Assembly (NCBI GenBank): GCA_964358705.1
Contig: CAYHPL010000002.1
Location: 173,017-237,016, forward strand
Direction of reading: 5' to 3'
Origin: an uncultured Chitinophagales bacterium
GTDB taxonomy: Bacteria > Bacteroidota > Ignavibacteria > UBA10030 > F1-140-MAGs086
DNA: 64,000 nucleotides
The notes beneath the pieces are model-generated. The model was given only the letters and a program-made list of their open reading frames with translations. It made no database searches and was not told the DNA's origin. Shown here piece after piece: positions 4,531 to 35,231 of the stretch. Every line of letters starts with the position of its first letter. The stretch's first letter is position 1. The position numbers were made by a program, and so were the translations under genes.

Positions 4531-4582
4531 CTAATCAAGTGCGGAAGGAGAAATGGGCTTTTCAGATGTCTCGTTGAGAATA

Positions 4583-7292: not shown

Positions 7293-7348
7293 TGTTTGAA
7301 GCAAGAAGCAAGAAGTCAGAAACAAGAAGTAAAAATTTGTAATTTAAC

Positions 7349-7930
7349 GTGAAGCAAATATCTACGAGCCAACAGATAAAAACTAAAAGTAAACCTTCCA
7401 TTAATTTCAAAAAGTATATTCGCAACGTTCCTGATTTTCCGAAATCGGGAATTATGTTTCGCGATATTACTACGCTTTTGATGAATGAGAAAGTTCTTCG
7501 TGCGGCGGTAGATGCGCTCGCAAAAAAATTTCAAAGAAAAAAAATTCAAAAAATTATTGCAATCGAATCACGGGGATTTATTTTCGGCGCAATGCTTGCG
7601 TATAAACTGAAATGCGGTTTTGTTCCCGTACGCAAACCGAATAAACTTCCGATGGTTGGCTTACTTATTTGTCAGGAATACTCTCTCGAATATGGAAAAG
7701 ACAAATTGGAAATGCACAGTGATGCGCTGAAAAAAAATGAGCGTGTTGTATTGATTGATGATTTGCTTGCAACGGGCGGAACAATGGAAGCGGCTTGCTG
7801 GATGGTTGAAAAAACTGGCGCGAAAATTCAAGGCATTGCATTTCTCATTGAACTCGATTTTTTACACGGACGTGATAAATTAAAAAATTACGATGTCTTT
7901 TCGTTAGTTCACTACATTGATGAAAAATGA
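7349..7930 (+). CDS. apt: Adenine phosphoribosyltransferase
   Basis: Diagnostic motifs are IRNVPDFPKSGIMFRDIT, IAIESRGFIFGA and the PRPP-binding VVLIDDLLATGGT. Confidence 0.9.
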   Translation: MKQISTSQQIKTKSKPSINFKKYIRNVPDFPKSGIMFRDITTLLMNEKVLRAAVDALAKKFQRKKIQKIIAIESRGFIFGAMLAYKLKCGFVPVRKPNKLPMVGLLICQEYSLEYGKDKLEMHSDALKKNERVVLIDDLLATGGTMEAACWMVEKTGAKIQGIAFLIELDFLHGRDKLKNYDVFSLVHYIDEK

Positions 7931-9297
7931 AAACAATAATTGAGCCATTCCGTATTAAATCTGTCGAGCCGATTCGTTTTACTTCGATAGAAGAGCGAAA
8001 AGAAATATTGCGCAATGCTTTTTTCAATCCGTTTTTTATCAAAGCGGATGACGTGCTGATTGATTTGCTTACGGATAGCGGAACGTCTGCAATGAGCGCG
8101 AAACAATGGGCGGGAATTATGGAAGGCGATGAATCGTACGCAGGGGCACGGAGTTTTTTCCGATTTGAAAAAGCAGTGCATCAATTAACAGGATTGCAGC
8201 ATATTATTCCCACGCATCAGGGGCGCGCGGCGGAAAAAATTTTATTTTCTATTATTGGCGGTAAAGGAAAATTTATTCCGAATAATTCGCACTTTGATAC
8301 AACACGCGCCAATATAGAATTCAGCGGCGCAACAGCAGTAGATTTACCGACAGAAATTGGAAAACATCCCGAAATAATTGCGCCATTCAAAGGCAATATG
8401 GATGTTGTTGCGCTGGAAAATTTTATTCAGAAAACAGGAGCGGAAAATATTCCTGTAATTTTTATCACTGTTACCAATAATTCTCTTGGCGGACAACCTG
8501 TTTCGATGCAAAATATCCGCGAAGTGAAGGAAGTTGCAGTAAAATATAATCTTCCGTTATTTCTTGATGCGTGCAGATTTGCAGAGAACGCATATTTTAT
8601 CAAGTTGCGCGAAAAAGGTTATGCGGAAAAATCCGTACGGGAAATTGTGCAGGAAATGTTTTCGTATTGCGATGGAGCAACAATGAGCGCTAAAAAAGAT
8701 GCGCTTGTCAATATGGGAGGATTTCTCGCACTGAATGATGACGAACTCGCAATTAAATCGAGAAATCTTCTCGTGATAACAGAAGGGTTTCCAACGTATG
8801 GCGGGCTTGCAGGAAGAGATTTGGAAGCAATTGCGCAAGGGCTTGAAGAAGTGTTAGATGAACATTATTTACAGTATCGCCTTCGTTCAATAGAATATCT
8901 CGGTGAAAAATTAACACAGGCGGGAGTTCCGATTTTACAACCTCCCGGCGGTCACGCAATTTATCTTGATGCAAAAAAAATCGCTTCACATATTTCTCCC
9001 GAGCATTTTCCGGGACAGGCAGTCGTGTGCGATTTGTATGAGCGCGGTGGAATTCGCGGCGTGGAAATTGGCAGTGTGATGTTCGGAAAATATGACGCGC
9101 AGAAAAAATTTATTCCCGCTATGATGGAACTCGTCCGACTCGCTATTCCGCGCCGTGTGTACACACAAAGTCACATTGATTATGTCATCGAAGTCGTGGT
9201 GGATTCTTATAATCATCGTAATGAACTTCCCGGATATACAATTACTTGGGAGCCTCCGTTGCTTCGCCATTTTACCGCAAGATTCAATCAGCAATGA
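7927..9297 (+). CDS. tnaA: Tryptophanase / tyrosine phenol-lyase family beta-eliminating lyase
   Basis: The N-terminus EPFRIKSVEPIRFTSIEERKEIL..NPFFIKADDVLIDLLTDSGTSAMS..IPTHQGRAAE is characteristic of the TnaA/TPL family. It is about 456 aa. Its start overlaps the apt stop. Confidence 0.8.
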   Translation: MKTIIEPFRIKSVEPIRFTSIEERKEILRNAFFNPFFIKADDVLIDLLTDSGTSAMSAKQWAGIMEGDESYAGARSFFRFEKAVHQLTGLQHIIPTHQGRAAEKILFSIIGGKGKFIPNNSHFDTTRANIEFSGATAVDLPTEIGKHPEIIAPFKGNMDVVALENFIQKTGAENIPVIFITVTNNSLGGQPVSMQNIREVKEVAVKYNLPLFLDACRFAENAYFIKLREKGYAEKSVREIVQEMFSYCDGATMSAKKDALVNMGGFLALNDDELAIKSRNLLVITEGFPTYGGLAGRDLEAIAQGLEEVLDEHYLQYRLRSIEYLGEKLTQAGVPILQPPGGHAIYLDAKKIASHISPEHFPGQAVVCDLYERGGIRGVEIGSVMFGKYDAQKKFIPAMMELVRLAIPRRVYTQSHIDYVIEVVVDSYNHRNELPGYTITWEPPLLRHFTARFNQQ

Positions 9298-9665
9298 CAC
9301 GAGAACAGTTTGAAGACCTTGCGCAAATTGCTTATGACGAATTACCAGAATTTTTTAAACAAAAAATTGACAACGTGCGTATCATTGTCGAAGAGTATCC
9401 GACAGAAAAAGAAATGCACAGCGTCCATTTACGTTCAAAACATCACTTGCTCGGTTTGTATCAAGGCGTTCCAACAACATTTCGCAATACGTGGTATGGC
9501 GCAACTCCAATGATGCCCGATACAATTATTCTCTATCAAAAAAATATTGAGAGTGTTTGTACAACCGATGAGGAAATCGGGAAAAAAATACGGGATGTTC
9601 TCATACACGAAATTGCGCATTATTTTGGAATGAATGAAGAGCAGGTGCGCTCAGCAGGATATTAA
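9294..9665 (+). CDS. Zincin-like metallopeptidase family protein (HExxH)
   Basis: It contains the HEIAHYFG motif near the C-terminus. It resembles small DUF-type 'metallopeptidase family' proteins. Its ATG (9294) overlaps the tnaA stop codon as ATGA, which implies translational coupling. Confidence 0.6.
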   Translation: MTREQFEDLAQIAYDELPEFFKQKIDNVRIIVEEYPTEKEMHSVHLRSKHHLLGLYQGVPTTFRNTWYGATPMMPDTIILYQKNIESVCTTDEEIGKKIRDVLIHEIAHYFGMNEEQVRSAGY

Positions 9666-9725
9666 ATTTTATACGACTTCACAACTTAATTACTATTATA
9701 ATACAACTACTTAGAAAATTTACTT

Positions 9726-10028
9726 ATGGCACGAATAATTTTTACAACAGCTTATCAGGTTCACCCTGCGTTGCGCGCGTCGTATCTTTCGCTTGCAGAC
9801 GATATGAAAAAATATTTCCTTGACCAGAAAAATATTGATTTCAGCGTGTATGAACAGCAGGGAAAAGAAAATAATTTTTCCGAAGTGTTCATTTTTGAGA
9901 CGGAGGAAGAATTTGAAACGTACGAAGATGGCAAGGATGAACAATGGAAACAACTTGAGCATCGCCTCGAAGAATATGTTCTCGATGGAAAGATGCAATA
10001 TTCCGTACTTGTAGAGCGCGTTGAATAA
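9726..10028 (+). CDS. Hypothetical acidic small protein
   Basis: It is a clean 100-aa ORF with no competing ORF. No motif was recognised. Confidence 0.4.
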   Translation: MARIIFTTAYQVHPALRASYLSLADDMKKYFLDQKNIDFSVYEQQGKENNFSEVFIFETEEEFETYEDGKDEQWKQLEHRLEEYVLDGKMQYSVLVERVE

Positions 10029-10066
10029 CAGTACGTTTCCATATTAATTTTTATTTTACAATTCAA

Positions 10067-10558
10067 ATGACAAAACGGAAGAAAGAACCATTTGACCCGA
10101 TTGCTGAATTTATGCAGGAGCATGATGATGCCGTGCATCAGTTGCATCAGTTAAATGATGCTGCAAAGCAACTTGCTGCTCATGGCTATTCAAAAGAGGC
10201 GTTTAAAAAAGTACTGCTCGGTTTGCGCTATATGCAAAATGAAGTTGGCGACCACAACAAAAAAGAAGAAGATGCGTTGTTCCCGGTTTTAGAACGCTAC
10301 GTTGAAGGTCCGACACAAGTGATGCGTGACGAACATATTATTTTGTACAAGCAGTTTGTGAAATTTCAGGAGTGTGTGGACGCGGTGAAAAAAGATTCTG
10401 ATGATAAAAAATTACTCCAACGATTAGTAATATTATCGCGGGGCATTGTGAAAATATTTGTCAATCATATTCATAAAGAAAATTATATTCTCTTTCCACT
10501 GGTGCAGCGTTTTTTAACGAAAGAGGAACTTCGCGAAGTTGCTAAAAAAATGCACTAA
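10067..10558 (+). CDS. Hemerythrin-like (HHE cation-binding) domain protein
   Basis: Spaced His/Glu ligand motifs are present: EHDDAVHQL, HNKKEEDALFP, DEH, HIHKENYILFP. Confidence 0.55.
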   Translation: MTKRKKEPFDPIAEFMQEHDDAVHQLHQLNDAAKQLAAHGYSKEAFKKVLLGLRYMQNEVGDHNKKEEDALFPVLERYVEGPTQVMRDEHIILYKQFVKFQECVDAVKKDSDDKKLLQRLVILSRGIVKIFVNHIHKENYILFPLVQRFLTKEELREVAKKMH

Positions 10559-20089: not shown

Positions 20090-21907
20090 CTATTTATCCA
20101 TCTCAATTCTCTGCAATTGAAATTCTTCAGCGCCAAATCCTTTGAGATTGATGAAAAGTTCTTGTGTAGTGCAAGATTGTTTCCTGAGTAATTCTTTTAC
20201 TTCCGGGTCGTTGAATACATTGCGTGAAATGAGAATATCATTTCCCTGCGATGCATCCACTAATCGAGCGGCAAGGTTAATTGTCGAACCAAAATAGTCA
20301 AGTTTATCATTGAGATTTACTGCGATAGAAGGTCCGAAATGTATTCCTGCTTTAAGAATGAGCGGTACAGTGGATATGCTTTTTTTCTTCAATGCAATCT
20401 GCGCTTCAATTACTGCCCGCATTGCATTTGCAGGACGTTTAAAAACAGCCATCACTGCATCACCCATTGTTTTAATAATCGCGCCTTCTTCGTTTGCAAT
20501 TGCTTCTTTCAGTACATCAAAGTGTTGCATTACCCGCCCGAATGCAGGCGCATCACCAATTTCTTTATACATTTTTGTCGAGCCGCGCAAATCCGTAAAG
20601 AGAATTGCAAGACTTCCGACTGAAATTTGTTCGCCCGGTCGCAATGCTTCATTGGCAAATAAATCACGGAACAATTGAAGTGAAGTTACGTCTGCGGCGG
20701 TTGCTGCCTGGTCGTTCCATTCCATTCGCTCAAAAATAAATAATTGTTCCTGTGATGTTTCGTTCCTGAATACGATAGTTGCTTTTGGGTGAAATGCAAT
20801 TTCTTCATTATTCCATCCGTTAAGTGTTGCAGAAAAAATTACTTCGCGCATTCCCTCATCATTAACAACGGCAAACGTTCCTCCATCAAGTTGTAATGTA
20901 CGTAAACGATAGCGACCTTTTTCAAGTAACGGATTTACTTTTCGCTCAGTCTTTGCTGGCAACAACTGCTGAATAGTAACGTGCGGTGTAACTTGCGGAC
21001 CTGCAATACAAAACTCCGCTGCGTCAATTTTTCTTATTGAAGAATTTGGTCTGAACGTGAGTTCTACTGAGCGGTCAAAATTAACGGTAAAATCAATATG
21101 GCAACTATCGCAATGAACCTGTGATTGAATTTTTGAAAGAGAATTTGCGGTGAATTTTGCACCGCGACAGAGCGGACATAATAAATCCCAGCGGAAGTCA
21201 AGCAAGCCCTCGCGTGTTGCAATTAAAAATGTTTCGAGAGTTTTTCTGCGCGAAACACTCCAATAATCTGCAAGAGCGTACGGACGAATACGGGAAAGCG
21301 TTAAATCATCAGAGGCAGAAATTATTTCTATGAGGTGATTGACTATTTGCAAATCCGCTCCCTGTTTTACAATGGATTGCTGAAGGTTACTCATTCGTTC
21401 TTTTCCCCCGGGTACAAATGTAACAGGAGTAGAAAAAAAGTGAGTATCGAAAAACAATTTTTTCTGATGTGCGGCAGTATCGTATTTGCGAAAAATTGAT
21501 TCGAATTTTTTTGCACTAATAAATCCTATCTGAAAAGGAATCGCCGCGTATCCGAGAATATTTTTAGGGATAGCCCATACTTCATACGAAAGGAATGTGC
21601 CTGTGCTTTCTGGAGTAAGTTCTGCAAGAACGCGCATCTCTGCAACTGGTCCGCTCGCATAACGCCGTACAACGCCAAAACGAAACGGGCGAATCCATTC
21701 AAAAGGTTCTTCAATCCATTCCACTGGAATGCCAAAGCGGTAGAGTCTGAGTTTGCGGCGTGCGTTGTGCAGTTCGCTGGTATCAAGTTGCTCAATTTCC
21801 GGCACGTCTGTATCGTGATTGAATTTATTGGTATCCGCAATCAGCGCCCAGAGTTGTTCAGGAGTTGACGAGAGATGCCATTCCCATTTATAATAAAATT
21901 CTTTACT
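20090..21907 (-). CDS. Class III adenylate/guanylate cyclase. It has an N-terminal SRPBCC-like domain and a central Cys4 (C-x2-C...C-x2-C) region.
   Basis: The C-terminal CHD domain contains FTDLRGSTKMY..IKTMGDAVMAVF..FGSTINLAARL. The start is moved to MSKEFYYKWEWHL (ATG 21907). The longer ORF to 21952 would read through the upstream terminator hairpin. Confidence 0.8.
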   Translation of the reverse strand, partial: SKEFYYKWEWHLSSTPEQLWALIADTNKFNHDTDVPEIEQLDTSELHNARRKLRLYRFGIPVEWIEEPFEWIRPFRFGVVRRYASGPVAEMRVLAELTPESTGTFLSYEVWAIPKNILGYAAIPFQIGFISAKKFESIFRKYDTAAHQKKLFFDTHFFSTPVTFVPGGKERMSNLQQSIVKQGADLQIVNHLIEIISASDDLTLSRIRPYALADYWSVSRRKTLETFLIATREGLLDFRWDLLCPLCRGAKFTANSLSKIQSQVHCDSCHIDFTVNFDRSVELTFRPNSSIRKIDAAEFCIAGPQVTPHVTIQQLLPAKTERKVNPLLEKGRYRLRTLQLDGGTFAVVNDEGMREVIFSATLNGWNNEEIAFHPKATIVFRNETSQEQLFIFERMEWNDQAATAADVTSLQLFRDLFANEALRPGEQISVGSLAILFTDLRGSTKMYKEIGDAPAFGRVMQHFDVLKEAIANEEGAIIKTMGDAVMAVFKRPANAMRAVIEAQIALKKKSISTVPLILKAGIHFGPSIAVNLNDKLDYFGSTINLAARLVDASQGNDILISRNVFNDPEVKELLRKQSCTTQELFINLKGFGAEEFQLQRIEMDK

Positions 21908-21926
21908 CATATATAAAAAAAGCCGA

Positions 21927-21958
21927 AGCAAAATGCACTCGGCTTGATACAAAATCTT
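21927..21958 (-). terminator. Rho-independent terminator closing the cox-ctaA-ctaB operon
   Basis: On the minus strand GCCGAgtgcattttgcTTCGGC is followed by TTTTTTT. It lies 18 nt after the ctaB stop. Confidence 0.65.
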
Positions 21959-23837: not shown

Positions 23838-24581
23838 TTACATAGAAAGGTTCGCTTCTTCATCAGCAAGCCATTGATTAAAATCTTCCATCGTCATAAT
23901 GGACATATAGCCACGCATGCGATAGTGACCTAATCCGCAAAGTTGAGCGCATGCAATTTCATATTCACCAATTACGCTTGGCGTAAACCAAATAGGTGTT
24001 TGTAAGCCGGGAATTGCATCTTGTGTAATACGCATTACAGGAAGTTTAAAACTGTGAATAACATCTTTGCTCGAAATATTAACAATTACAGGTTTATTTA
24101 CAGGCAAATTCAATTGATTGATTGTCGCAATGTCATCTTTTGCGTCAGCGTCATTGCGGTCGAGTCCCAGTGGATTATCGGAATCCACAAGTGCAATATC
24201 ACGTTTCCCGAATTTTCCATCTTTGCCGGGATAGTGAATATTCCATGCAAACTGCTCAGCAACGACATTAATGACAACAGCATCTTTTTCCTTCGGGAAC
24301 TCATTTACTCTTTTTGCCCAAAGCGGAATGGAAAAAACAACGAGCAATACAACTTCAAATGCAGCAACAGCAATTTCAAGATAGTTTGATGCATGGCTTT
24401 TTACGCCGTGATAATCTGCATGAGGGTTCTTGGCTTTTCTGAAGCGAAAAATTGTGTACATAAAGAAGATGCCCCAACCGATGAACAGTACGAACATCAA
24501 ATAATGAAGGATGATGATTAAATTATCTACTTCGTGCCCGGAAGCAGAAGCATCTATGGGTAATCCTAAAAATTGTTCCAT
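23838..24581 (-). CDS. coxB: Cytochrome c oxidase subunit II (CuA-containing). It has no fused cytochrome c domain.
   Basis: The CuA site is H..CAQLCGLGHYRM. There are two N-terminal TM helices and no CxxCH motif. Confidence 0.9.
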   Translation of the reverse strand: MEQFLGLPIDASASGHEVDNLIIILHYLMFVLFIGWGIFFMYTIFRFRKAKNPHADYHGVKSHASNYLEIAVAAFEVVLLVVFSIPLWAKRVNEFPKEKDAVVINVVAEQFAWNIHYPGKDGKFGKRDIALVDSDNPLGLDRNDADAKDDIATINQLNLPVNKPVIVNISSKDVIHSFKLPVMRITQDAIPGLQTPIWFTPSVIGEYEIACAQLCGLGHYRMRGYMSIMTMEDFNQWLADEEANLSM

Positions 24582-24600: not shown

Positions 24601-24831
24601 TTAAATTGATTGCGAGAGAGTATTCCCGCGATGATATTTGATTCTTTTTCGCATCATTACAAAAAAAATAGTGACGCAACACAGCATACTTCCTGTTATG
24701 CCAAGCATTGTTGCGATGGCTGCATTCATTCCGTCTATCATTGGTCCAGAAGATGAACCATAACATGAAGGGCAGGCAAACAACGCTGAAGGAAATAATA
24801 AAATTCCTAAAATGACAAGAGCAAATTTCAC
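24601..24831 (-). CDS. Small membrane protein with a CPSC motif, of unknown function
   Basis: 76 aa. It has a signal/TM helix, ACPSCYG, then a second TM. It lies inside the cox operon. Confidence 0.4.
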   Translation of the reverse strand: MKFALVILGILLFPSALFACPSCYGSSSGPMIDGMNAAIATMLGITGSMLCCVTIFFVMMRKRIKYHRGNTLSQSI

Positions 24832-25034
24832 AAAAAACTAATGTGTCTTAATTTATGAAGGAATCGAATTCCGTAAATAATCAGTGAAATACCTGTCATC
24901 GCAGAAAGCGTTGAATAAGCAAGATAAATCATTTCGCTGTTGCTGATAAATTCCTTAGCAAGCCATGCAGAAAACCCAAATGCGGTAAGTACGGACAGCG
25001 AGATAAAAAAAATGTGAAATGTTTTCAGTGACAT
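24828..25034 (-). CDS. Small two-TM membrane protein of unknown function
   Basis: 68 aa. It is translationally coupled to its neighbours; its stop overlaps the next start. Confidence 0.4.
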   Translation of the reverse strand: MSLKTFHIFFISLSVLTAFGFSAWLAKEFISNSEMIYLAYSTLSAMTGISLIIYGIRFLHKLRHISFL

Positions 25035-25345: not shown

Positions 25346-25350
25346 AGTGT

Positions 25351-25953: not shown

Positions 25954-27837
25954 TTAGTTTTGATGTTGTGGATAAAAATCTGTCGAATGTCCGGGTACAC
26001 TATATTCGTAAGGTCCACGATACACTTCCGGAACCTGGGCGAAATTGCCATGTCCGAGTGGAGGAGAAGTGGTTGCTGCCCAATCCAACGTTGTTGCTTC
26101 CCACGGATTGTCATTTACCTCTTTTCCTTTTTTAATGCTCCAGAAAAGATTAATGATAAAAAATACCTGAAAGCCAGCCATTATCCATGCGCCGACAGAC
26201 ATTACTTCATTCAAATAAAGAACTCCTTGTGCATGTGCGTACTGAGTGCCGCCATCATAAAGACGACGGGATACACCTGCGAGACCTTGAATTAACATCG
26301 GAAAGAAAATTATATTCATACAAATAAATGAACCCCAGAAGTGAATTTTTCCAAGCGTTTCGTTCATTCTTCGCTTTGTTAATTTTGGAAACCAATAATA
26401 AATTCCGGCAAATAATGCGAAGATAGTTCCCGGTGCTACAACGTAATGAAAATGTCCGATTACGTAATACGTATCATGTAAATGAATATCTGAAGTACTC
26501 AACCCTAATGGCAGTCCTGTGAGCCCTCCGATACCAAACATAGGCAGAAAAGCAAGTGCGAAAAGCATCGGGGTATTCATTCGTATAGAGCCGCCGTATA
26601 ATGATATAACTAATGCTGAGAGAATTATAACAGAAGGGATTGAAATAATCATCGTCGTTGTTTGGAAAAAAGCACTTATAGTTGAACCCATTCCGGTCAT
26701 AAACATATGGTGTGCCCAAACTACAAAGGACATAAATCCCAGAAAAACAGAAGAATACACAAGTGATTTATATCCCCACAAAGGTTTGCGAGTATTGTTT
26801 GCAATTATTTCTGCTACAATCCCCATTGCAGGAAGAATAAGCACGTACACTTCAGGATGCGCAAGAAACCAGAACAGATGTTGCCAAAGAAGGGGGCTTC
26901 CACCACCGGAATTTGTAAGCGGCACTCCCGACACTACTAATCCGCTGGGAAGGAAAAAACTTGTTCCGGCAACTCTATCCATCAATTGTAAAACGCCAGC
27001 GGCTTCAAGTGGAGGAAAAGCAAGAAGAAGAAGAAAAGAAGTAACAAACTGCGCCCATACAAAAAATGGTAAACGCATAAATGATAATCCCTTCGCACGC
27101 AATTGCACAATTGTTACAATAAAATTTACAGAGCCGAGTAATGAAGATGTAATTAAAAATACCATTCCGAGAAGCCAAACCGTTTGACCTGTAGTTGCAA
27201 TATCAGAAAGCGGTGGATAAGAAGTCCATCCTGAATTTGCAGCTCCACCTGGCACAAAGAAACTTACTAACATCGTAACTCCACCAGCAAAGAAAACCCA
27301 ATAACTCATCATATTCAGTTTCGGATATGCCATATCAGGTGCGCCAATTTGTAATGGCATTACATAATTTCCAAATGCACCGACAGCAAGCGGTACAACT
27401 CCGAGAAAAACCATTATCGTGCCGTGCATTGCTCCTAACTGGTTATAAAATTCTGGCAACATAATTCCATCAGGCATATTTTGCTCAAGTGTAGAAATAT
27501 ACCATAAGAGTGCGGCTATGCCTACAAGCGATAATCCGATAAGCATATTCAACGATAATTTTAAGCCACGCAGAAACATTACAATCAAACCTATTCCAGC
27601 AACGGGAAGAACAAATCTCATTGTAGGAAATGGTTGCTCCGGATAAGCGAGTTGCCATCTCATAATTGCCATCAAAAAGAAACCAAATAAGAGAAATATC
27701 AATGATGTTAATCCATATTGAATTCCAATAATTTTATGGTCTGTTGAAAAAACATATTTTCTCAAAAAACTTTCATGATGATGAGACTCTTCAGTGTGTG
27801 CATTGTTGTTTGAATGCGCTGTAGGATTTATTGACAT
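25954..27837 (-). CDS. coxA: Cytochrome c oxidase subunit I (heme-copper oxidase catalytic subunit)
   Basis: Twelve or more TM helices. GHPEVYVLILP, WAHHMF and HDTYYVIGHFHYV carry the His ligands. Confidence 0.95.
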   Translation of the reverse strand: MSINPTAHSNNNAHTEESHHHESFLRKYVFSTDHKIIGIQYGLTSLIFLLFGFFLMAIMRWQLAYPEQPFPTMRFVLPVAGIGLIVMFLRGLKLSLNMLIGLSLVGIAALLWYISTLEQNMPDGIMLPEFYNQLGAMHGTIMVFLGVVPLAVGAFGNYVMPLQIGAPDMAYPKLNMMSYWVFFAGGVTMLVSFFVPGGAANSGWTSYPPLSDIATTGQTVWLLGMVFLITSSLLGSVNFIVTIVQLRAKGLSFMRLPFFVWAQFVTSFLLLLAFPPLEAAGVLQLMDRVAGTSFFLPSGLVVSGVPLTNSGGGSPLLWQHLFWFLAHPEVYVLILPAMGIVAEIIANNTRKPLWGYKSLVYSSVFLGFMSFVVWAHHMFMTGMGSTISAFFQTTTMIISIPSVIILSALVISLYGGSIRMNTPMLFALAFLPMFGIGGLTGLPLGLSTSDIHLHDTYYVIGHFHYVVAPGTIFALFAGIYYWFPKLTKRRMNETLGKIHFWGSFICMNIIFFPMLIQGLAGVSRRLYDGGTQYAHAQGVLYLNEVMSVGAWIMAGFQVFFIINLFWSIKKGKEVNDNPWEATTLDWAATTSPPLGHGNFAQVPEVYRGPYEYSVPGHSTDFYPQHQN

Positions 27838-27927
27838 AGAATAAAATTTGTTAGTTGAAATGTGTAAGTATGCGAAAAAGGGCTTAAGATATTATTCTTA
27901 AACCCTTTTTGTAGCATTGAAATAGAT

Positions 27928-28644
27928 TTATTTGCCCTCGAAAGTGAAATCGGCAGTTGCGTCTTTATCCGATACTTTTACTTTCATAACAGCAGTGCCG
28001 AGTTTTTCCTGCCAAGCAGTTATTTCGTAATCCCCTGCCGGAAGATTTTTAAGTGTAAAACTTCCCTGCTCGTTACTTACTGCAAAAAATGGGTGATCCA
28101 TTACTCCAACATACGTTGACATCCAGTTATGTACTTCACATTTTACTTTTACCATTTGCTCTGATGCAGTAAAAGTTTTTGTCATCTTCATTCCTTGTTT
28201 TGGTTGAGCAACATTGAATTGCGGACTGTTTTTAGAAAGAGAGTGTACATTATGAAGAGTGTTGTCGCTGTTAATAATTTCTACGGGCTGATTTACCATG
28301 ACTCCCAAAACGTGTGGAGTGTACATACAGCCTTCCTGATTTAATTTCACCGTTTCTTTTGATGGAGGAAATTTCTTTCCTTCCAAGCCCTTCGATACAT
28401 AAATGAACACATTTTTCAACGTGCTATTTGTATTGATGACGATAGCATCAGATAAAACTTCTTTTTTATCGTGAAGTTTTACACATTTTGCATCAGCATT
28501 CATTTTAATTTTTTGCGGTTTTGGTGCAGTTCCTTTAAAATTGACTTTTCCGGTTACATTACCTGCCAAAGTAAAATTAAATACGAATACAGATGTTAGC
28601 AATAATAGTGCGATTTTTTTCATTTGTTTTTTTTCCTGTTTCAA
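27928..28644 (-). CDS. Secreted cupredoxin-like (type-1 copper) protein with a CarboxypepD_reg-like beta-sandwich. A candidate electron donor to the oxidase.
   Basis: Signal peptide present. An upstream His lies in TLHNVHS. A C-terminal C-x2-H-x2-M (CEVHNWM) gives an amicyanin-type ligand spacing. The C-terminal tail is SFTLKNLPAGDYEITAWQ. It lies immediately upstream of coxA in the same orientation. Confidence 0.5.
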   Translation of the reverse strand: MKQEKKQMKKIALLLLTSVFVFNFTLAGNVTGKVNFKGTAPKPQKIKMNADAKCVKLHDKKEVLSDAIVINTNSTLKNVFIYVSKGLEGKKFPPSKETVKLNQEGCMYTPHVLGVMVNQPVEIINSDNTLHNVHSLSKNSPQFNVAQPKQGMKMTKTFTASEQMVKVKCEVHNWMSTYVGVMDHPFFAVSNEQGSFTLKNLPAGDYEITAWQEKLGTAVMKVKVSDKDATADFTFEGK

Positions 28645-29177: not shown

Positions 29178-32100
29178 TTACGGTAAATTTTCCCACTGCC
29201 AGCTTGCGTATGGTCGCAATGCATATACTCCTGCATTTACACCGCTTTCTACCGGATACCAATATGTGCCGTTCCATCTTGCAACATACGAAATCGTGTT
29301 TCCATTAGCGGTAGTAAATAAACCTCCTGCATATAATTCATTTTGAAAAACTGACAAAGTCCAAACACTATTGTTCATTCCAGTTCCAACTGAAGACCAA
29401 TCAATGCCATCATACCGTGCGATATGATTTAAAGTAACACTGCCGGAATTTTCAAATTCGCCGCCTGCAAATATCTGATTATTAAAATTCGTGAATGACC
29501 AAACAATCTGGTCAACTCCAGAGCCAACAGCGGACCAAACATTTCCATTCCATTTTGCTATTCTTTTCATTTCGTTGCCGGCTACATTTAGAAAATTTCC
29601 TCCCACATATAATTCATTATTAAAAACGGAAAGTGTGGTAACTGTTCCATCAATTCCACCGGGCACTGCAGACCACGAAGTTCCGTTCCATTTGGCTAAA
29701 TAATTTGCAGCAATTCCTCCTGCTGTTGTAAATGCGCCGCCTGCATACAATTCATTTTCAAATACTGAAAGCGTGAGTACAGGATTATCGAATCCACCGC
29801 CGACTTGTTCCCAGTTGCTTCCATTCCATTTTGCGATGTAATTTACTGAATTTCCATCTGCAACGGTGAAATAACCGCAAGCATACAATTCATTGTTGTA
29901 TTGTGCAAAATTTCTTACTGTACTGTTCATTCCGATGCCAATTGAACTCCACGCAGTTCCATTCCATTTTGCAACGCGATATGCTTCGATGCCATTCACA
30001 CTTGTAAAATCACCTCCAAGGTACAATTCCTTTCCGCTTGAATACAATGCAAATACTGTTCCGCTTACTCCATTTCCTATCGGCTTCCATTCAATGCCGT
30101 TCCATCGTGCAATTCTTTTTGCATTCTGTCCTCCAGCTGTTAAAAATGCGCCGGCTGCAATAAGTTCGCTTGTATAAAATACTTTTACAGTATTTGAAAA
30201 TCCACTAACGCTTGATGCATTTTTTGCCCGTACTTTAAAATAGTACACGGATGATTGCAAATATGGTCCGAGTATTGCCACAGAATTAGCGTTGATGCCC
30301 ACATTTTGTATGTGTGTAAAATTTATTCCATCAATGCTTCTGAATATTTCAAAAACACTTTCATTTGCACTATTATCCTGCCATTGGAGAGTAACAATAT
30401 TATTACTAACGCTAGATATATTCAATAAAGAAGGTGCAGGAAAATTCGGTGTTGCATTGGAGATTTGAGAATATGCGCTCACATTGTAGTTTGAAATTGC
30501 CTGTATCCTGAACGAATAATTGAATACAGTAGAAAAACTTCCAGTGATAGATGCGCTGGTAGAATTTGCAGGGATAATTTGCAACACAGAGAAATTTATT
30601 CCGTCCGTGCTTTGCTCAATGGAAAATCCCGTTTCAAAATTACTTCGGTCTGTCCAATGTGCAGAAAAAATCGCTGTTGTAAATTCCGTAATTTGAAAAT
30701 TTGCCGGTGATGGAAATTGCAGGCGGATGGAATCCATATTTGCAAAACCGCTTTGAATATTTTCCTTTATTGCCTGTACGCGAAAATAGTACATCTGGTT
30801 TGTATAAAATGTATCCTGAATCGAAGCAACGGTACTATTTGCTTCCACGGATTTTATAAATGCAAAATGAACTCCATCAATGCTTTTTTGAATTTCAAAT
30901 GCTGTTTCATTTTGTGTTCTGTCTTGCCATTGTACAATTGCAATGCTTTCATTTATTGAGCTGATGCGTACATTTGATGGTGCAAGAAATACAAAACTTC
31001 CCTGCGCAACATTGGAATTGCCGCTGCTATTCATGCCATCCGATGCACGGATTCTGAAATGGTAAGTCGTGTTTGCGGAAAAATTTCCCGTTACAAATCC
31101 GCTTGTAGAATTTGCATTGTACGTCGCGGCTAATGAAAAAATATTGCCGTCATTGCTTGTGTCAATTTCAAATCCTGTTTCGATGGCGCTGTTATCAGTC
31201 CATTGCAATAATGCAACGCTGTCTGACATACCAAGCACTGCAAGATTTGATGGAGCAGGAAAAGAAGGTGAGCCGGAAGTTGTGTTTGTGTAATTACTGA
31301 CATTAAACAAGGAAACAGCACGCAGTCTGAAATAATAAATGGTATTAGCATTAAAGTTTCGTGCAATTGCAGCGGTTGTTGAATCTGCGCTAATAGTATC
31401 TATTGCAGTAAAATTTATTCCGTCAGTACTTTGCTCAATCTGAAAAAAAATTTCAAAACTGCTGTTATCCTGCCACTGTATATTTACTTGTTCCATCGTG
31501 ATTGAGTGTAAAAGCAGATTACTTGGCGCAGGAAATATCAGCGTTGAAAAAACTACATTGGAAAAATCACTCGCATTAGTGTTTGTTTTTGCCCGCACTT
31601 TGAAATAGTATGTTGTCGTCGTTAGATAATTTCCTGCAATAATAGTATTCGTAATATTTGCGCCCACATCTCCGATGTGAATAAAATTTGTACCATCGGT
31701 ACTTCTGTATATTTCAAATACTGTTTCAAACGCAGTATTATCAACCCACTGCAAACCAAACGTGTTTTCAGTAATAGAAGTAAATAGCAGATTTGAAGGC
31801 GGAGGAAATTGTACCATCGCTGTTGCAGTATTAGAATAACCGCTTGTTGTCGCACCGCTTACAGTTCTCATTCTAAAATAGTAGGGGAGTGCGGCAATAT
31901 AATTTCCGGGAATAACTGCAGAGGAAGTGTTTGGCTGCACTGATTGCACAAATGCAAAATTCATTCCGTCAAGACTGCGCTCAATTTCGTAGCCGGTTTC
32001 CGAAAAACTGTTATCAATCCACGAGAGAACAATATTCTGCTCTGTTGCAGATGTAACAATGACGTTTCCCGGAGGAGAAATTACTGCGCTCCCCACAACA

Positions 32101-35100
32101 TTATTTGAAAAACTGCTGAAATTATAGAGAGATTTTGCGCGCACGCGAAAAATATAATTTTCCCCAAGTGAAAAATTTCCGTGCACTGTTGTAGCAGTCG
32201 CATTCGGACCGATGCTATCAACAAGTGTAAAACCTCCGCCGCCACCGCTTTGTTCAATTTGAAATTGCGTTTCAAAATCACTGTTATCCTGCCATTGCAG
32301 CGCTGCGGTATTTTCTGTTAATGAAACGAGTGCGAGATTAGTTGGCTTCGGAAAAATGAGATTCGCAGTTGGAATATTGGAATAAAATCCAATGTTGTTT
32401 GCGTTGCGAGCGCGAACACGGAAATAGTACGAGCGCGTCGTGAGATACGGTCCCGACACACTTGCTTCTGTAATATTTGCGCCGACAGTATTTTGTAAAA
32501 CATAGTTAATGCCGTTTGAACTTTTTTCAACTTCAAATACTGTTTCATTTGTTGTATTATCAGTCCATATAAGATTTACAGAATGTTCCGTTATCAAACC
32601 AATCGCAAGGTCAGGCGCTGAAAAAATATTTGCAGGAATGATATTTGAATATTCACTGAAATTTAATTCTGTAAAAGCGCGCACGCGGTAATAATAAGTG
32701 ATGCTTTGCAAAAAATTATTGGCATCCTGATAAAACGTTGTATTCGGAGATAAAAATGCATTGAGTATTTCAAATGAAATTCCATCGGTACTTCTTTCTA
32801 AACTGTAACCCGATTCAAAATCACAATTATCCAACCATTGTAATTGTATTGTATCAGGAGAAGTGAACAGCACGCGCATATCTGTTGGAAACGGAAATGT
32901 AACAGTTGCGCTCGTATAGTTAGAGTACGGACTGGAAAGAATTCCTGCAGTAACACGGACACGGAAAAAATATGTTTCCGTCGTAAGATAGTCGCCGGGA
33001 ACATTTGCAACAGTTATATTCGGCGGCAACGTCATTATGCGTGTGTAGTTAATATTGTCGGTGCTGCGTTCTATAAAAGTAAATATTTCACTGTTGCAAT
33101 TATCTATCCATTGCAGCATCATCGAATGTTCTGTTGTTGAAGTTACCACCAAATCAGTTGGCTCAGGAAGTGCAATTTCCGTGTTGATTATATTTGAATA
33201 CGGACTTGCATTATTTTCAGTAACCGCGCGTACACGAAAGTAATAAATGGAATCATCAACAAATGTTCCGAGTATCATTGCGCTTCTTATATTTGCACCG
33301 ACTGTTTTCACCCACGAAAAATCAGAATCATTTACACCTTCTTCAATTTCAAATCCTGTTTCCGAGTTACTATTATCTGTCCATTGCACAATTGCAGAAT
33401 TGGAAGTAACAACGAGCAATTGCATATTTGATGGCGCGTTGAAAATAAATTTTCCGACAGCAATATTTGAATACGCGCTGTACCCATGCAATGACCGCGC
33501 GCGTACTCTGAAATAGTACGTTTGTGTTGTAAGAAAAATTCCGTGAACAGTATCAGTCGTCTTATTCGCTCCGACAGTATCCACCATAAAAAAATTCATA
33601 CTGTCTTCGCTTTCTTCAATATCAAACCCTAATTCATTGCTCGTACTATCTTCCCACACGAGTATCATAGTAGATTCTGTTACATCAGTTACCGCCACGT
33701 TTTTTGGCGGAGCAACAAACGGTGATTTTGATACGACATTAGAAAAATCGCTGGTATTATACAGAGAGCGCGCCTGTACGCGGAAATAATATTTTACTCC
33801 CGGAACAAAAATTGCAGAGACCGTTGAAATTGTAACATTGGCAATTGTGGAAAACAGCGTATTGTAATGTCCGCTGTCTCTGCTCATCTGAATATCAAAC
33901 GCTATTTCATTCAATGTATTATCATGCCACGAAAGCGTAACCTGTGTTTCTGAAAGTGAATCTACTCGTAAATTTGTAGGGCGTAAAAATTCAAAATACA
34001 CTGGCACGGCTGTTGAATACGGACTGGAATTTATTTCTCCAACCGCACGCACGCGAAAATAATAATTATATCTCCAATAGAAAGGTCCTGATATGATTGC
34101 ACCGGCTTCGTTTGCAGGAACTTGCGCGACAAGTGCGTACGTGTTTCCGCTGTCCAGACTTTGCTCTACTTCAAAACCTGTTTCAAAATATGTTTGGTCA
34201 TTCCATTGCAAGCGTAATTCTTCCTCATTGAAAACAAGAACAACAAGTTCTGTTGGTGCGTTAAACTGAAATGCAATAGAATCACTATTGGAATAACCGC
34301 TCACATTTATATCCGTAGTTGCGCGTAAGCGAAAATAGTAATTACTATCTGCAAGAAATTTTTCAAAATACATTCCATGCGTGGAATCTGGTTTAAAGAG
34401 TGCAACAGGAGCAAAAAATACATTATCAGAACTTTGCTCAAGAGTAAACCCTGTTTCAAAACTGCTGTTATCTTCCCATCGCACTTCAATAAATGTTTCT
34501 CCAAAAGAAATTATGCGTAAATTATTTGGCGCTGGGAAATCAAATGCAGTAGAATCAATATTAGAATATTCGCTCGTATTAATATTCGATTTTGCGCGTA
34601 TGCGAAAATAGTATGTCGAATCAGCAAAATAATTTCCCGCAATACCTATCTGATGTGTATCGCGCGGAGCAGTAACTACCTCTGTAAAATGAATTGCATC
34701 GGTGCTTTGCTCTATGGAAAAGATGGATTCAAAATCATTGTTGTCGCTCCAGCGCAAATGGACATTGTGTTCGGAAGATTCAGTAATTGTTAAATTGGTA
34801 GGCGCAGGAAAAGAGAGTGTGTTGCTGATGATGTTGGAATAGCCGCTTGCATTGTTTCCCGCTTTCACTCGTAGTCGGAAATAATATGTTGTGTCCTTGA
34901 AATTTTCAGTAGTAAAAGTTGCCTGCAGTGATTCTGCTTTTACTTTTGCAAAAAAAGAAAAATTTCTTCCATTTGTGCTGCGCTCGATTTCAAAATATGG
35001 CTTTGTATTGGGAAATGCGCGGAAATTATTTTCATTTTTCCATTCAAGCCGTATGTTCGTTTCTTTAAAATGCACCATTCGCAATTTCTTCGGCGATTTC

Positions 35101-35231
35101 AGTTGAACATCGGTATCTACCGGATTATTGTACTCTCTTTTTTTACAGGAAAGTTGCAGCAAAATAACTCCAACAAATACTGTAAAAAGCATTTGGCCAA
35201 AACAAAATATATATTTTGAGAATCGTTTCAT
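29178..35231 (-). CDS. Giant (2017-aa) cell-surface protein. It has about 19 tandem fibronectin-type-III-like repeats plus a C-terminal array of ~48-aa beta-propeller-like repeats. It has a lipoprotein-like signal peptide and no T9SS C-terminal domain.
   Basis: ~95-aa units recur with the pattern P.NL......(T/S)...L.W.DNS..E.GF.IE.S.DG..F...V.AN.T...I.G.....YYFRVRA.....S.YSN. The C-terminal repeats read AKWNG..W..(V/I)G.G....V..L..(F/Y).NELY.GG.FT.A(G/D)G. The N-terminus is MKRFSKYIFCFGQMLFTVFVGVILLQLSC. Confidence 0.85.
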   Translation of the reverse strand: MKRFSKYIFCFGQMLFTVFVGVILLQLSCKKREYNNPVDTDVQLKSPKKLRMVHFKETNIRLEWKNENNFRAFPNTKPYFEIERSTNGRNFSFFAKVKAESLQATFTTENFKDTTYYFRLRVKAGNNASGYSNIISNTLSFPAPTNLTITESSEHNVHLRWSDNNDFESIFSIEQSTDAIHFTEVVTAPRDTHQIGIAGNYFADSTYYFRIRAKSNINTSEYSNIDSTAFDFPAPNNLRIISFGETFIEVRWEDNSSFETGFTLEQSSDNVFFAPVALFKPDSTHGMYFEKFLADSNYYFRLRATTDINVSGYSNSDSIAFQFNAPTELVVLVFNEEELRLQWNDQTYFETGFEVEQSLDSGNTYALVAQVPANEAGAIISGPFYWRYNYYFRVRAVGEINSSPYSTAVPVYFEFLRPTNLRVDSLSETQVTLSWHDNTLNEIAFDIQMSRDSGHYNTLFSTIANVTISTVSAIFVPGVKYYFRVQARSLYNTSDFSNVVSKSPFVAPPKNVAVTDVTESTMILVWEDSTSNELGFDIEESEDSMNFFMVDTVGANKTTDTVHGIFLTTQTYYFRVRARSLHGYSAYSNIAVGKFIFNAPSNMQLLVVTSNSAIVQWTDNSNSETGFEIEEGVNDSDFSWVKTVGANIRSAMILGTFVDDSIYYFRVRAVTENNASPYSNIINTEIALPEPTDLVVTSTTEHSMMLQWIDNCNSEIFTFIERSTDNINYTRIMTLPPNITVANVPGDYLTTETYFFRVRVTAGILSSPYSNYTSATVTFPFPTDMRVLFTSPDTIQLQWLDNCDFESGYSLERSTDGISFEILNAFLSPNTTFYQDANNFLQSITYYYRVRAFTELNFSEYSNIIPANIFSAPDLAIGLITEHSVNLIWTDNTTNETVFEVEKSSNGINYVLQNTVGANITEASVSGPYLTTRSYYFRVRARNANNIGFYSNIPTANLIFPKPTNLALVSLTENTAALQWQDNSDFETQFQIEQSGGGGGFTLVDSIGPNATATTVHGNFSLGENYIFRVRAKSLYNFSSFSNNVVGSAVISPPGNVIVTSATEQNIVLSWIDNSFSETGYEIERSLDGMNFAFVQSVQPNTSSAVIPGNYIAALPYYFRMRTVSGATTSGYSNTATAMVQFPPPSNLLFTSITENTFGLQWVDNTAFETVFEIYRSTDGTNFIHIGDVGANITNTIIAGNYLTTTTYYFKVRAKTNTNASDFSNVVFSTLIFPAPSNLLLHSITMEQVNIQWQDNSSFEIFFQIEQSTDGINFTAIDTISADSTTAAIARNFNANTIYYFRLRAVSLFNVSNYTNTTSGSPSFPAPSNLAVLGMSDSVALLQWTDNSAIETGFEIDTSNDGNIFSLAATYNANSTSGFVTGNFSANTTYHFRIRASDGMNSSGNSNVAQGSFVFLAPSNVRISSINESIAIVQWQDRTQNETAFEIQKSIDGVHFAFIKSVEANSTVASIQDTFYTNQMYYFRVQAIKENIQSGFANMDSIRLQFPSPANFQITEFTTAIFSAHWTDRSNFETGFSIEQSTDGINFSVLQIIPANSTSASITGSFSTVFNYSFRIQAISNYNVSAYSQISNATPNFPAPSLLNISSVSNNIVTLQWQDNSANESVFEIFRSIDGINFTHIQNVGINANSVAILGPYLQSSVYYFKVRAKNASSVSGFSNTVKVFYTSELIAAGAFLTAGGQNAKRIARWNGIEWKPIGNGVSGTVFALYSSGKELYLGGDFTSVNGIEAYRVAKWNGTAWSSIGIGMNSTVRNFAQYNNELYACGYFTVADGNSVNYIAKWNGSNWEQVGGGFDNPVLTLSVFENELYAGGAFTTAGGIAANYLAKWNGTSWSAVPGGIDGTVTTLSVFNNELYVGGNFLNVAGNEMKRIAKWNGNVWSAVGSGVDQIVWSFTNFNNQIFAGGEFENSGSVTLNHIARYDGIDWSSVGTGMNNSVWTLSVFQNELYAGGLFTTANGNTISYVARWNGTYWYPVESGVNAGVYALRPYASWQWENLP

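Follow-up and report, generated by a model that had tools for sequence, protein, structure and literature searches.

The stretch of DNA analysed here, 64,000 nucleotides in length and referred to as the window, carries on its minus strand an oxidase operon in the order CUP–coxA–coxC–coxD–two small ORFs–coxB–ctaA–ctaB. The gene of interest, encoding the protein that we call CUP, is the first of these. The features of the locus are as follows:

27928–28644, minus strand: CUP gene, encoding a predicted secreted two-domain cupredoxin protein; 238 residues from TTG, 231 from the probable ATG at 28623
28561–28644, minus strand: signal peptide, residues 1–28 (...FTLA, then GNVTGK), assigned from the sequence; predicted helix at residues 2–22
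28351–28560, minus strand: residues 29–98, comprising the opening strand(s) of the predicted transthyretin-like sandwich and an arm that includes a short helix (boundaries deduced); contains Cys54 (nt 28483–28485), present in 140/142 representatives
28090–28350, minus strand: cupredoxin domain, residues 99–185, with Cys106 (nt 28327–28329) at its start
28240–28260, minus strand: TLHNVHS, residues 129–135; His131 is the predicted N-terminal copper ligand and Asn132 the hallmark Asn, from conservation and alignment to amicyanin His53 and plastocyanin His37
28120–28140, minus strand: CEVHNWM, residues 169–175; Cys169, His172 and Met175 make up the predicted ligand loop, spaced as in amicyanin, from conservation, alignment and pLDDT 91–95
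27931–28089, minus strand: residues 186–238, C-terminal strands of the transthyretin-like/CarboxypepD_reg β-sandwich
27870–27917, minus strand: strong hairpin plus U-run, terminator- or attenuator-like, between the CUP stop and the coxA start (dG −22 kcal/mol, z −8.1)
25954–27837, minus strand: coxA, subunit I, 627 residues (PF00115, E 1.6e-132)
25351–25941, minus strand: coxC, subunit III, 196 residues (PF00510)
25034–25387, minus strand: coxD, subunit IV, 117 residues (PF03626)
24828–25034, minus strand: conserved ORF of 68 residues with two TM helices (MSLKxFHIFFI...); homologues in 42 loci
24601–24831, minus strand: conserved ORF of 76 residues with a signal/lipobox-like segment, C-P-x-C-Y/F-G and one TM helix; homologues in 43 loci
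23838–24581, minus strand: coxB, subunit II, 247 residues, with a CuA motif and without a cytochrome c domain (PF00116, TIGR02866; no CxxCH)
22907–23833, minus strand: ctaA, heme A synthase (PF02628)
21976–22902, minus strand: ctaB, heme O synthase (PF01040)

The ORF that an earlier note on this DNA had placed directly upstream of coxA is real, the coxA start (at 27837) lying 90 nt downstream of it, and both CEVHNWM and TLHNVHS can be read straight off the window DNA. An in-frame ATG at residue 8, with AGGA just before it, is the probable start, and it is also the one used in public gene calls (P0001; 231 residues, 100% identical). The N-terminal signal peptide reads MKKIALLLLTSVFVFNFTLA/GNVTGK, where the slash marks the presumed cleavage site; in the window copy it is of the plain kind, having neither a lipobox cysteine nor a linker, unlike the membrane-tethered type exemplified by auracyanin B, halocyanin and sulfocyanin. 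Elsewhere in the family, a lipobox cysteine together with a Gly/Pro/Ala-rich linker is present in 63 of 142 homologues.

Subunit II has the properties previously described for it: the CuA motif (H...CAQLCGLGHYRM) is in place, the COX2 and TIGR02866 models both match and, as the protein has no fused CxxCH domain, it does not belong to the caa3 type. The oxidase needs a periplasmic electron donor: CoxB keeps the CuA ligands but lacks a heme c motif. The accompanying claim that no ORF of the window contains CxxCH is literally incorrect, as three stop-to-stop ORFs (of at least 50 residues) do so, namely, those for a DUF5939 plus nucleotide-cyclase protein, a membrane protein of the Cytochrom_C_asm family and a product of 112 residues; none of these is a cytochrome c, however, and the conclusion drawn from the claim stands. 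Genes for cytochrome c, Rieske and ACIII proteins were likewise not found in the window by a CxxCH scan and Pfam scans of 25 window ORFs, and CUP is the only candidate carrier within the operon of this lineage. Across 30 related loci, an octaheme ORF upstream of CUP (see below) is the sole multi-heme ORF; the other CxxCH ORFs are few, contain a single motif and lie outside the cox genes.

The AlphaFold2 model of CUP is confident (pLDDT 90.8) and comprises two domains: a cupredoxin domain (residues ~99–185), predicted to be a Greek-key β-sandwich, is nested within a predicted transthyretin-like (CarboxypepD_reg) β-sandwich, in keeping with the embedding that had been proposed from the sequence. 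The best fold matches to the modelled cupredoxin domain are amicyanin, plastocyanin, pseudoazurin and the Nitrosopumilus cupredoxin 5fc9, and the model superposes on 5fc9 and on amicyanin (1aac) at 1.5–1.8 Å. Within it, strand 162–169 ends at Cys169, and the ligand loop then runs into strand 176–182. The domain has diverged too far to be recognised by the existing Pfam cupredoxin models: neither Copper-bind (PF00127) nor Cupredoxin_1 (PF13473) matches the window protein at E ≤ 0.1, such that the profile search recommended by the earlier note fails to detect it, and the score of the homologue P0125, 21.9 bits, falls short of the cut-off of 27. Indeed, Pfam and NCBIfam scans of CUP gave no above-threshold matches, the only Pfam signal being a CarboxypepD_reg-like one below threshold (PF13620, a family of seven-strand prealbumin-like sandwiches), and a PDB sequence search returned marginal matches only (5fc9, with E values of 0.55 and 0.057). 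Given that NCBI names the family 'carboxypeptidase regulatory-like domain-containing protein' and that Pfam is blind to its cupredoxin domain, the family is easily missed.

The predicted copper ligands, His131(Asn132)...Cys169-x2-His172-x2-Met175, are spaced as in amicyanin, which bears out what had been noticed for CEVHNWM. Among 142 representatives that are 29–50% identical to the query, His131 and Cys169 are invariant (142/142 in each case), so that no homologue lacks the cysteine, and His172 and Met175 are each retained in 141. Of the two histidines in TLHNVHS, where a ligand had been suspected, it is the first, His131, that corresponds to the predicted ligand; His134 is less conserved (115/142). 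Asn132, which directly follows the first ligand, is present in 141/142; an asparagine in this position is a hallmark of cupredoxins. Trp174 (141/142) and Cys54 are similarly well conserved. The order His...Cys-Xn-His-Xm-Met, with the last three on a C-terminal loop, is kept across the family, and in a MAFFT alignment the ligand columns match those of amicyanin, plastocyanin and pseudoazurin, with a loop of the same length as that of amicyanin. Independently, HMMER pairs the HN and C-x2-H-x-W segments of CUP with 5fc9. Judged on sequence, the motif is far beyond chance; we infer that CUP binds copper, and it is most likely a type-1 (blue) copper protein with an amicyanin-length ligand loop. The same residues bear on the idea that CUP has neither metal nor redox function and is simply a structural periplasmic β-sandwich, in which the ligand-like residues are coincidental or structural. 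The sub-threshold Pfam signal, exclusively CarboxypepD_reg-like, and the corresponding NCBI family name would suit such a protein, but the retention of four ligands and the Asn in 141–142 of 142 representatives at this level of identity, the confidently predicted cupredoxin fold and the tight linkage to respiratory genes across several phyla make it exceedingly improbable, and we reject it on the basis of the ligand conservation.

Genomic context is the main evidence for the role of CUP. Across 80 species loci, the gene that follows is coxA in 55, a CUP–CoxB fusion in five and ctaA–ctaB in 13, the last of these arrangements being seen in Planctomycetia, Omnitrophota and Acidobacteriota; thus the proximity to coxA, whose conservation the earlier note had proposed as a check, holds in 55 of 80 loci, and 18 more have the fusion or ctaA next. 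Furthermore, an ORF of ~850–960 residues for an octaheme (8-CxxCH) cytochrome c ends just upstream of CUP in 52/80 loci, and at two of them (L065 and L029) the gene order is Rieske, cyt b(N), cyt b(C), octaheme c and then CUP. This Rieske/cyt b/octaheme module is not adjacent to CUP in the window lineage. A few paralogues occupy unrelated contexts (L058, L071 and L073). Members of the family occur in Ignavibacteriota/Bacteroidota, Planctomycetota, Omnitrophota, Acidobacteriota and Verrucomicrobiota, and a motif scan places it in at least 597 GTDB species; in a second homologue search, seeded with the copy from an Ignavibacterium sp., the best 120 matches were all MAG or metagenome proteins.

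In a number of relatives, CUP is physically joined to the oxidase, being fused via flexible linkers to CoxB at either end, and also to CoxD. The 514-residue ORF of locus L025 consists of a signal peptide, a full CUP, COX2_TM and the CuA domain; its CUP portion is 49% identical (E 5e-76), with the ligands intact, and the same arrangement recurs at L017, L036, L063 and L079 and in P0133. In P0153 the order is reversed, with the CoxB CuA domain leading through an acidic linker into CUP; this is the topology of caa3, with CUP in place of cytochrome c. In P0202, it is CoxD that is followed by a Pro/Ala linker and CUP. Tandem copies also occur: a free CUP precedes the CUP–CoxB fusion at five loci, and P0125 is a further instance. 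Neither the CoxB and CoxD fusions nor the octaheme c ORF directly upstream in most relatives (with Rieske/cytochrome b in the loci examined) had formed part of the case made in the earlier note.

We consider it probable that CUP is a periplasmic type-1 copper carrier that feeds CuA and functionally replaces cytochrome c; overall, the analysis supports the previous interpretation of a candidate blue-copper donor beside coxA. The cupredoxin domain would bind one copper via His131, Cys169, His172 and Met175, and the transthyretin-like sandwich would probably act as a docking or spacer module. Reduced CUP would pass electrons one at a time to the CuA centre of CoxB, within the heme-A oxidase encoded alongside it, thereby filling the role that a soluble or fused cytochrome c has in aa3/caa3 oxidases. 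The reductant in most relatives would presumably be the octaheme cytochrome c encoded immediately upstream; for the window organism, half of the proposed path is unsupported, because the window contains neither of the presumed reductants, the Rieske/cyt b/octaheme module and ACIII.

The presence of the assembly genes ctaA–ctaB next to CUP in Planctomycetia, Omnitrophota and Acidobacteriota would also fit a role in biogenesis, in which CUP would bind periplasmic Cu(I) as a chaperone or assembly factor and insert it into CuA or CuB, in the manner of PCuAC, or of CupA in copper trafficking. PCuAC is defined by the motif H(M)X10MX21HXM on a cupredoxin-like fold (PMC9145763); CUP has neither this motif nor a PCuAC Pfam match, and its ligands are instead the canonical electron-transfer set, His-Asn...Cys-x2-His-x2-Met, with an invariant cysteine. 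Moreover, Sco1 is encoded at L029 in addition to CUP, and both the permanent tethering to CoxB or CoxD through long linkers and the position right after the octaheme c ORF (behind Rieske/cyt b at L065 and L029) are easier to reconcile with a redox partner than with a chaperone that acts transiently. We judge a chaperone function to be unlikely.

Somewhat less unlikely, though still doubtful, is that CUP is a respiratory type-1 copper protein without being the direct donor to CuA: it could be an additional, permanently bound subunit of a complex III–IV supercomplex, or a branch-point carrier, which would either draw electrons from the octaheme protein for other acceptors or feed the chain from another periplasmic donor. 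The class-I cytochrome c domains of the octaheme protein could reduce CuA directly, which would leave CUP on a side branch; the transthyretin-like domain suggests stable docking; and the tandem copies and the paralogues in non-oxidase contexts also speak for a role of this kind. Against this, P0153, in which CUP is fused C-terminally to the CoxB CuA domain, copies the topology of the caa3 donor exactly, and the operon of the window lineage offers no other candidate carrier.

The concept of a blue-copper donor has precedents in auracyanin and sulfocyanin, and the earlier description of the arrangement as unusual was overstated: such donors to heme-copper oxidases are known, and the CUP family is widespread. 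Amicyanin (Paracoccus; PDB code: 1aac), which shares the ligand spacing, consists of one domain, is encoded in the mau cluster and receives its electrons from methylamine dehydrogenase. CUP differs in its additional, transthyretin-like domain and in its genomic linkage: its neighbours are cox and cta genes, along with bc genes in relatives, and the genes examined included no mau gene. Auracyanin (Chloroflexus/Roseiflexus) is also single-domain, has a longer ligand loop and is encoded far from the ACIII and cox operons; its partner is ACIII, as opposed to the Rieske/cyt b/octaheme complex proposed for CUP. Sulfocyanin (SoxE, of the archaeal SoxM supercomplex) is membrane-anchored, as is halocyanin, and in this respect both resemble about half of the CUP family; they are, however, archaeal, belong to a different cupredoxin subfamily and lack the transthyretin-like domain, and, unlike their systems, the CUP cluster also includes a multiheme cytochrome c. 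The cytochrome c domain of caa3 subunit II is a linker-tethered carrier on CoxB that feeds CuA, and P0153 has an identical topology with CUP swapped in; the domain itself is a heme protein of unrelated fold, and in the window the carrier has a gene of its own. AcoP and rusticyanin (Acidithiobacillus ferrooxidans) serve iron oxidation in an acidophile and are single-domain proteins with different ligand loops. In Nmar_1307 of Nitrosopumilus maritimus (PDB code: 5fc9), a single-domain archaeal protein described as a purple cupredoxin, an Arg aligns with Met175 of CUP. The respiratory study of Melioribacter roseus concerns a different oxidase, together with cytochrome c551 and ACIII.

The literature searched contained no description of the architecture of CUP, its linkage or its fusions. 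With a little more confidence than doubt, we would extend the proposal to a hitherto undescribed family of two-domain cupredoxins that, in several phyla, would take over from cytochrome c as the dedicated carrier connecting complexes III and IV, in forms that are free, lipid-tethered or fused to CoxB or CoxD. The complex III-like module would be Rieske/cytochrome b plus the octaheme subunit and complex IV an A-family heme-A oxidase, giving a 'cu-aa3' oxidase analogous to caa3, and the nested transthyretin-like domain would represent a novel means of docking a blue-copper protein. A donor of this kind would fill a gap in the respiratory chains reconstructed for uncultured Ignavibacteria, Bacteroidota, Planctomycetes, Omnitrophota and Acidobacteria, namely, the carrier between the quinol-oxidising complex and aa3-type oxidases with a cytochrome-c-less subunit II. 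If CUP is indeed the donor, hundreds of species (at least 597 in GTDB) would use a copper carrier, rather than a heme carrier, at this step, with consequences for how much copper, relative to iron, aerobic respiration requires in groundwater, soil and sediment. The natural CoxB– and CoxD–cupredoxin fusions would then be a copper-based counterpart of caa3 oxidases, and a cupredoxin nested in a transthyretin-like sandwich would offer a new architecture for the study of docking and electron transfer.

The hairpin between CUP and coxA is lineage-specific, as z is below −3 in just 5 of 56 intergenic regions, three of which are copies of the same contig; it is therefore not counted as part of the conserved system. 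A consensus terminator scan missed it, probably owing to base-pairing of the U-run within the extended stem; it was detected by direct folding.

The open reading frame proposed for the putative copper protein is real. It lies at 27928..28644 on the minus strand and, read from a TTG codon, specifies a secreted protein of 238 residues (hereafter CUP, numbered from the TTG), the N-terminus of which is a signal peptide. Public gene calls begin at the ATG of residue 8 (nt 28623), which is in frame and preceded by AGGA; the resulting protein of 231 residues (P0001) matches the window sequence exactly, and the contigs bearing the gene are named Hain_H52. The window, with a G+C content of 38%, also encodes type IX secretion substrates. 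CUP is the first gene of a minus-strand operon with the order CUP–coxA–coxC–coxD–two small membrane ORFs–coxB–ctaA–ctaB, the spacer between CUP and coxA being 90 nt.

Features in and around the CUP–cox operon (window positions)
29178..35231, minus: FN3-repeat protein of 2,017 aa with a C-terminal DUF5122 propeller region, upstream of the operon
27837..25954, minus: coxA
24828..25034, minus: 68-aa membrane ORF between coxD and coxB, starting MSLKxFHIFFI, with two TM helices
24601..24831, minus: 76-aa membrane ORF between coxD and coxB, conserved in related cox operons
24581..23838, minus: coxB
20090..21952, minus: DUF5939 and adenylate/guanylate cyclase protein that immediately follows ctaB, with a CxxCH
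54670..55491, minus: 273-aa membrane protein of the Cytochrom_C_asm family (CcsA/HemX-like), with one CxxCH
1386..4391, minus: BNR/sortilin-like protein with a type IX secretion C-terminal sorting domain, further from the operon
4583..6178, minus: BNR/sortilin-like protein with a type IX secretion C-terminal sorting domain, further from the operon

The earlier note had described subunit II (CoxB) as carrying a CuA site without a fused cytochrome c; indeed, the CuA motif H...CAQLCGLGHYRM is kept and a heme c motif is absent. Its statement that the window has no CxxCH-containing ORF requires amendment: the motif occurs three times, but none of the occurrences is a cytochrome c, and the electron donor is, therefore, not obvious. 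No cytochrome c gene was found within the window. The sole in-gene CxxCH near the operon, that of the cyclase protein, appears to be a chance occurrence. The CcsA/HemX-like protein suggests that heme handling for the maturation of cytochromes c probably takes place in this organism.

The two motifs singled out as candidate copper ligands are correctly positioned: TLHNVHS spans residues 129–135 (nt 28240..28260) and CEVHNWM residues 169–175 (nt 28120..28140). Across 32 close homologues, C54, H58, C106, H131, N132, H134, C169, H172, W174 and M175 are invariant. In a broader set, gathered by an exhaustive HMM search and comprising 142 representatives (29–50% identical to CUP), H131 and C169 are present in every sequence, such that no member is without the cysteine; N132, H172, W174 and M175 are each found in 141, and the less conserved H134 and H58 in 115 and 99, respectively. 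When aligned using MAFFT with amicyanin, plastocyanin and pseudoazurin (reference sequences entered by hand), H131, C169, H172 and M175 occupy the four ligand columns, and the ligand loop is of amicyanin length, in keeping with the spacing originally remarked on. Independently, HMMER matches the HN and C-x2-H-x-W segments to the Nitrosopumilus cupredoxin 5fc9.

Profile libraries barely detect CUP: Pfam gives no cupredoxin match, only sub-threshold CarboxypepD_reg-type matches at residues 186–235, and an NCBIfam scan of CUP returned nothing useful. A PDB sequence search found no solved structure of a close relative. The AlphaFold2 model, built with 32 homologues, has a mean pLDDT of 90.8 (91–96 in the ligand regions) and a pTM of 0.84, and a Foldseek search of the PDB with this model retrieves cupredoxins, namely, the cupredoxin domain of NirK, plastocyanins, amicyanins, 5fc9 and a pseudoazurin with an engineered amicyanin loop. 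In the model, C169 falls at the end of a β-strand, with H172 and M175 in the loop before the next strand; this predicted placement is the canonical cupredoxin arrangement, and no observation speaks against the four ligands meeting at one site. We consider it very likely that CUP is a type-1 copper cupredoxin.

Based on secondary structure and aligned lengths, the cupredoxin domain (approximately residues 99–185) would be inserted into a transthyretin-like sandwich (residues ~29–98 and 186–238); at the domain level, the earlier description of the segment as embedded in a CarboxypepD_reg-like sandwich was, therefore, apt. We speculate that the transthyretin-like domain could plausibly serve as a docking or spacing module. 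Outside the copper site there is a second pair of conserved cysteines, C54 (140 of 142; 28483..28485) and C106 (all 142; 28327..28329), which, most simply, would probably form a disulfide that holds the N-terminal arm against the cupredoxin domain. The nearby H58 and H111 are conserved only in part.

The decisive evidence on CUP comes from its genomic context, which was tallied for the best 80 species loci. In 55 of these, coxA lies directly downstream and is followed by coxC–coxD–two small ORFs–coxB–ctaA–ctaB, as in the window, which shows the conservation beside coxA that the earlier note proposed to check. The next gene encodes a CUP–CoxB fusion in five loci, the next genes are ctaA–ctaB in 13, and four have another neighbour (one with cox genes a few kb off); in the remaining three the flank is too short to tell. 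Upstream, 52 of the 80 loci have an ORF of ~850–960 aa with eight CxxCH motifs, the end of which is no more than a few hundred nucleotides from CUP (ORFs cut by a contig end being shorter, with fewer motifs); no such ORF is present in 16, and the flanks of the other 12 are short. This octaheme cytochrome c contains class-I and c7/c3-like domains, and its occurrence upstream of CUP, with cox/cta genes downstream, recurs across loci whose labels span several phyla. Two loci illustrate the arrangement. In L065, from an Ignavibacterium sp. MAG, the order is small 4Fe–4S protein–Rieske–cytochrome b (N)–cytochrome b (C)–octaheme c–CUP–coxA and following genes (Rieske/split cytochrome b/octaheme c cluster at 2351..7971); in L029, from an Omnitrophota MAG, it is Rieske–cytochrome b (N)–cytochrome b (C)–octaheme c–CUP–ctaA–ctaB–ABC transporter genes–Sco1–DUF420 (cluster at 2261..7957). 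In both, CUP is the exact junction of complex III-like and complex IV operons. The cluster is absent from the window, and in this lineage (the window plus L004, L005, L006, L007, L009, L012, L046 and L075) the upstream module is lost or moved, the upstream neighbours of CUP being a 170-aa ORF and the 2,017-aa FN3-repeat protein.

Elsewhere, L058 has a CUP paralogue near a 4Fe–4S protein, a hemerythrin and a radical-SAM/SPASM enzyme (~6400..10350), and a paralogue in L071 (also ~6400..10350) has a parallel layout, as judged by its ORF pattern. With no cox genes within 8 kb, these two copies may have another role.

Several independent fusions join the CUP domain to oxidase subunits. Directly after the free CUP gene in L025, a 514-aa ORF (5439..6983) comprises a signal peptide and a complete CUP, followed by the transmembrane hairpin of CoxB and the CuA domain. 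Its CUP part shares 49% identity with the window protein (E 5e-76) and retains both HNVH and KCDVHPWM. A free CUP followed by such a fusion is also found in L017, L036, L063 and L079, and P0133 is a further CUP–CoxB fusion. P0153, an N-truncated fragment, has a CoxB CuA domain, an acidic low-complexity linker and CUP at its C-terminus; its topology is that of caa3 subunit II, with CUP where caa3 has cytochrome c. In P0202, CoxD is joined to CUP by a ~230-residue Pro/Ala-rich linker.

Taken with the ligand conservation, context and fusions support the proposal of the earlier note, and we think it probable that CUP is the physiological electron donor to the co-encoded oxidase. Most simply, CUP would carry one electron at a time: the Cu(II) of its His2CysMet site would be reduced by the periplasmic hemes of a complex that oxidises quinol (in most relatives, presumably those of the octaheme cytochrome whose gene lies upstream) and re-oxidised by CuA of CoxB, from which electrons would pass to heme a and the heme a3–CuB site. 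An oxidase with an intact CuA requires a donor in the periplasm; this need, the lack of a fused cytochrome c or of any other carrier encoded in the operon, and the repeated evolutionary tethering of CUP to the oxidase all favour such a role. The octaheme protein has its own class-I cytochrome c domains, and it is possible that CUP is instead a fixed subunit of a supercomplex, or a carrier on a branch, rather than the direct donor to CuA. A copper chaperone might also be envisaged, given an operon without Sco, PCuAC or CtaG and the ctaA–ctaB neighbourhood in some phyla; however, CUP lacks the PCuAC motif (PMC9145763), its ligand set is of the electron-transfer type, Sco1 is present beside it in L029, and both permanent fusions and a place after a cytochrome c gene would ill suit a transient chaperone, so we disfavour this function. 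The conservation pattern argues strongly against a purely structural protein. As an electron carrier, CUP would not be without parallel. Other blue-copper proteins take the place of cytochrome c, including halocyanin, plastocyanin with the cyanobacterial oxidase, and AcoP/rusticyanin with the Acidithiobacillus aa3 operon. So, too, do auracyanin, which acts downstream of ACIII in Chloroflexus (PMC3150298), and sulfocyanin, part of the archaeal SoxM Rieske/cytochrome b/oxidase supercomplex (PMC3750248). Given these precedents, the principle is not new, and to call the arrangement unusual was an overstatement. The sole physiological study of a member of the Ignavibacteria concerns another oxidase, which receives electrons from ACIII through cytochrome c551 (PMC5492636). 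Full-text literature searches returned no description of a cupredoxin nested in a transthyretin-like sandwich, nor of its systematic siting between the octaheme c gene of a Rieske/cytochrome b cluster and an A-family oxidase operon, nor of natural CoxB–CUP and CoxD–CUP fusions. The finding can be tested directly and is of solid interest for bioenergetics and for the annotation of metagenomes, albeit not categorically new.

The family is large: ~1,500 to 2,700 proteins (90% clusters) match at stringent E-values, a 50% cluster library contains 2,445 representatives at E ≤ 1e-30 (some being giant CarboxypepD_reg repeat proteins), and, when one genome of each GTDB species was scanned by motif, at least 597 species had it. 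Labels among the species listed include Ignavibacteriota, Bacteroidota, Chlorobi-labelled MAGs, Planctomycetia, Omnitrophota, Acidobacteriota, Verrucomicrobiia and one Desulfobacterales MAG; among the closest homologues the labels are Ignavibacteria or Bacteroidota, and the best matches all derive from MAGs or metagenomes. NCBI names the homologues 'carboxypeptidase regulatory-like domain-containing protein', and the JGI pipeline labels many of them 'plastocyanin'. A lipobox cysteine and a Gly/Pro/Ala-rich linker identify 63 of the 142 diverse homologues as periplasmic proteins tethered to the membrane; in the window copy, the signal peptide is a plain one. The module is duplicated in tandem in P0125 (452 aa), and P0124 (559 aa) has two copies behind an N-terminal, anti-sigma-factor-like zf-HC2 zinc finger.

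The 76-aa and 68-aa ORFs are kept in 42–43 related cox operons and matched no Pfam or NCBIfam family. The former has a signal/lipobox-like segment ending ...FAC-P-x-C-Y/F-G, followed by one TM helix and RKR; the pair could represent additional subunits of the oxidase, or a CxxC copper/thiol factor. Lastly, a 15-bp hairpin with a U-run lies in the spacer that separates CUP from coxA (~27870..27917, minus strand; dG −22 kcal/mol, z −8.1). It was not detected by a consensus terminator scanner and is not conserved in most relatives (z < −3 in five of 56 intergenic regions, three of them in copies of this very contig). It looks like an intrinsic terminator or attenuator within the operon, and could allow the carrier transcript to be made in excess of that of the oxidase.
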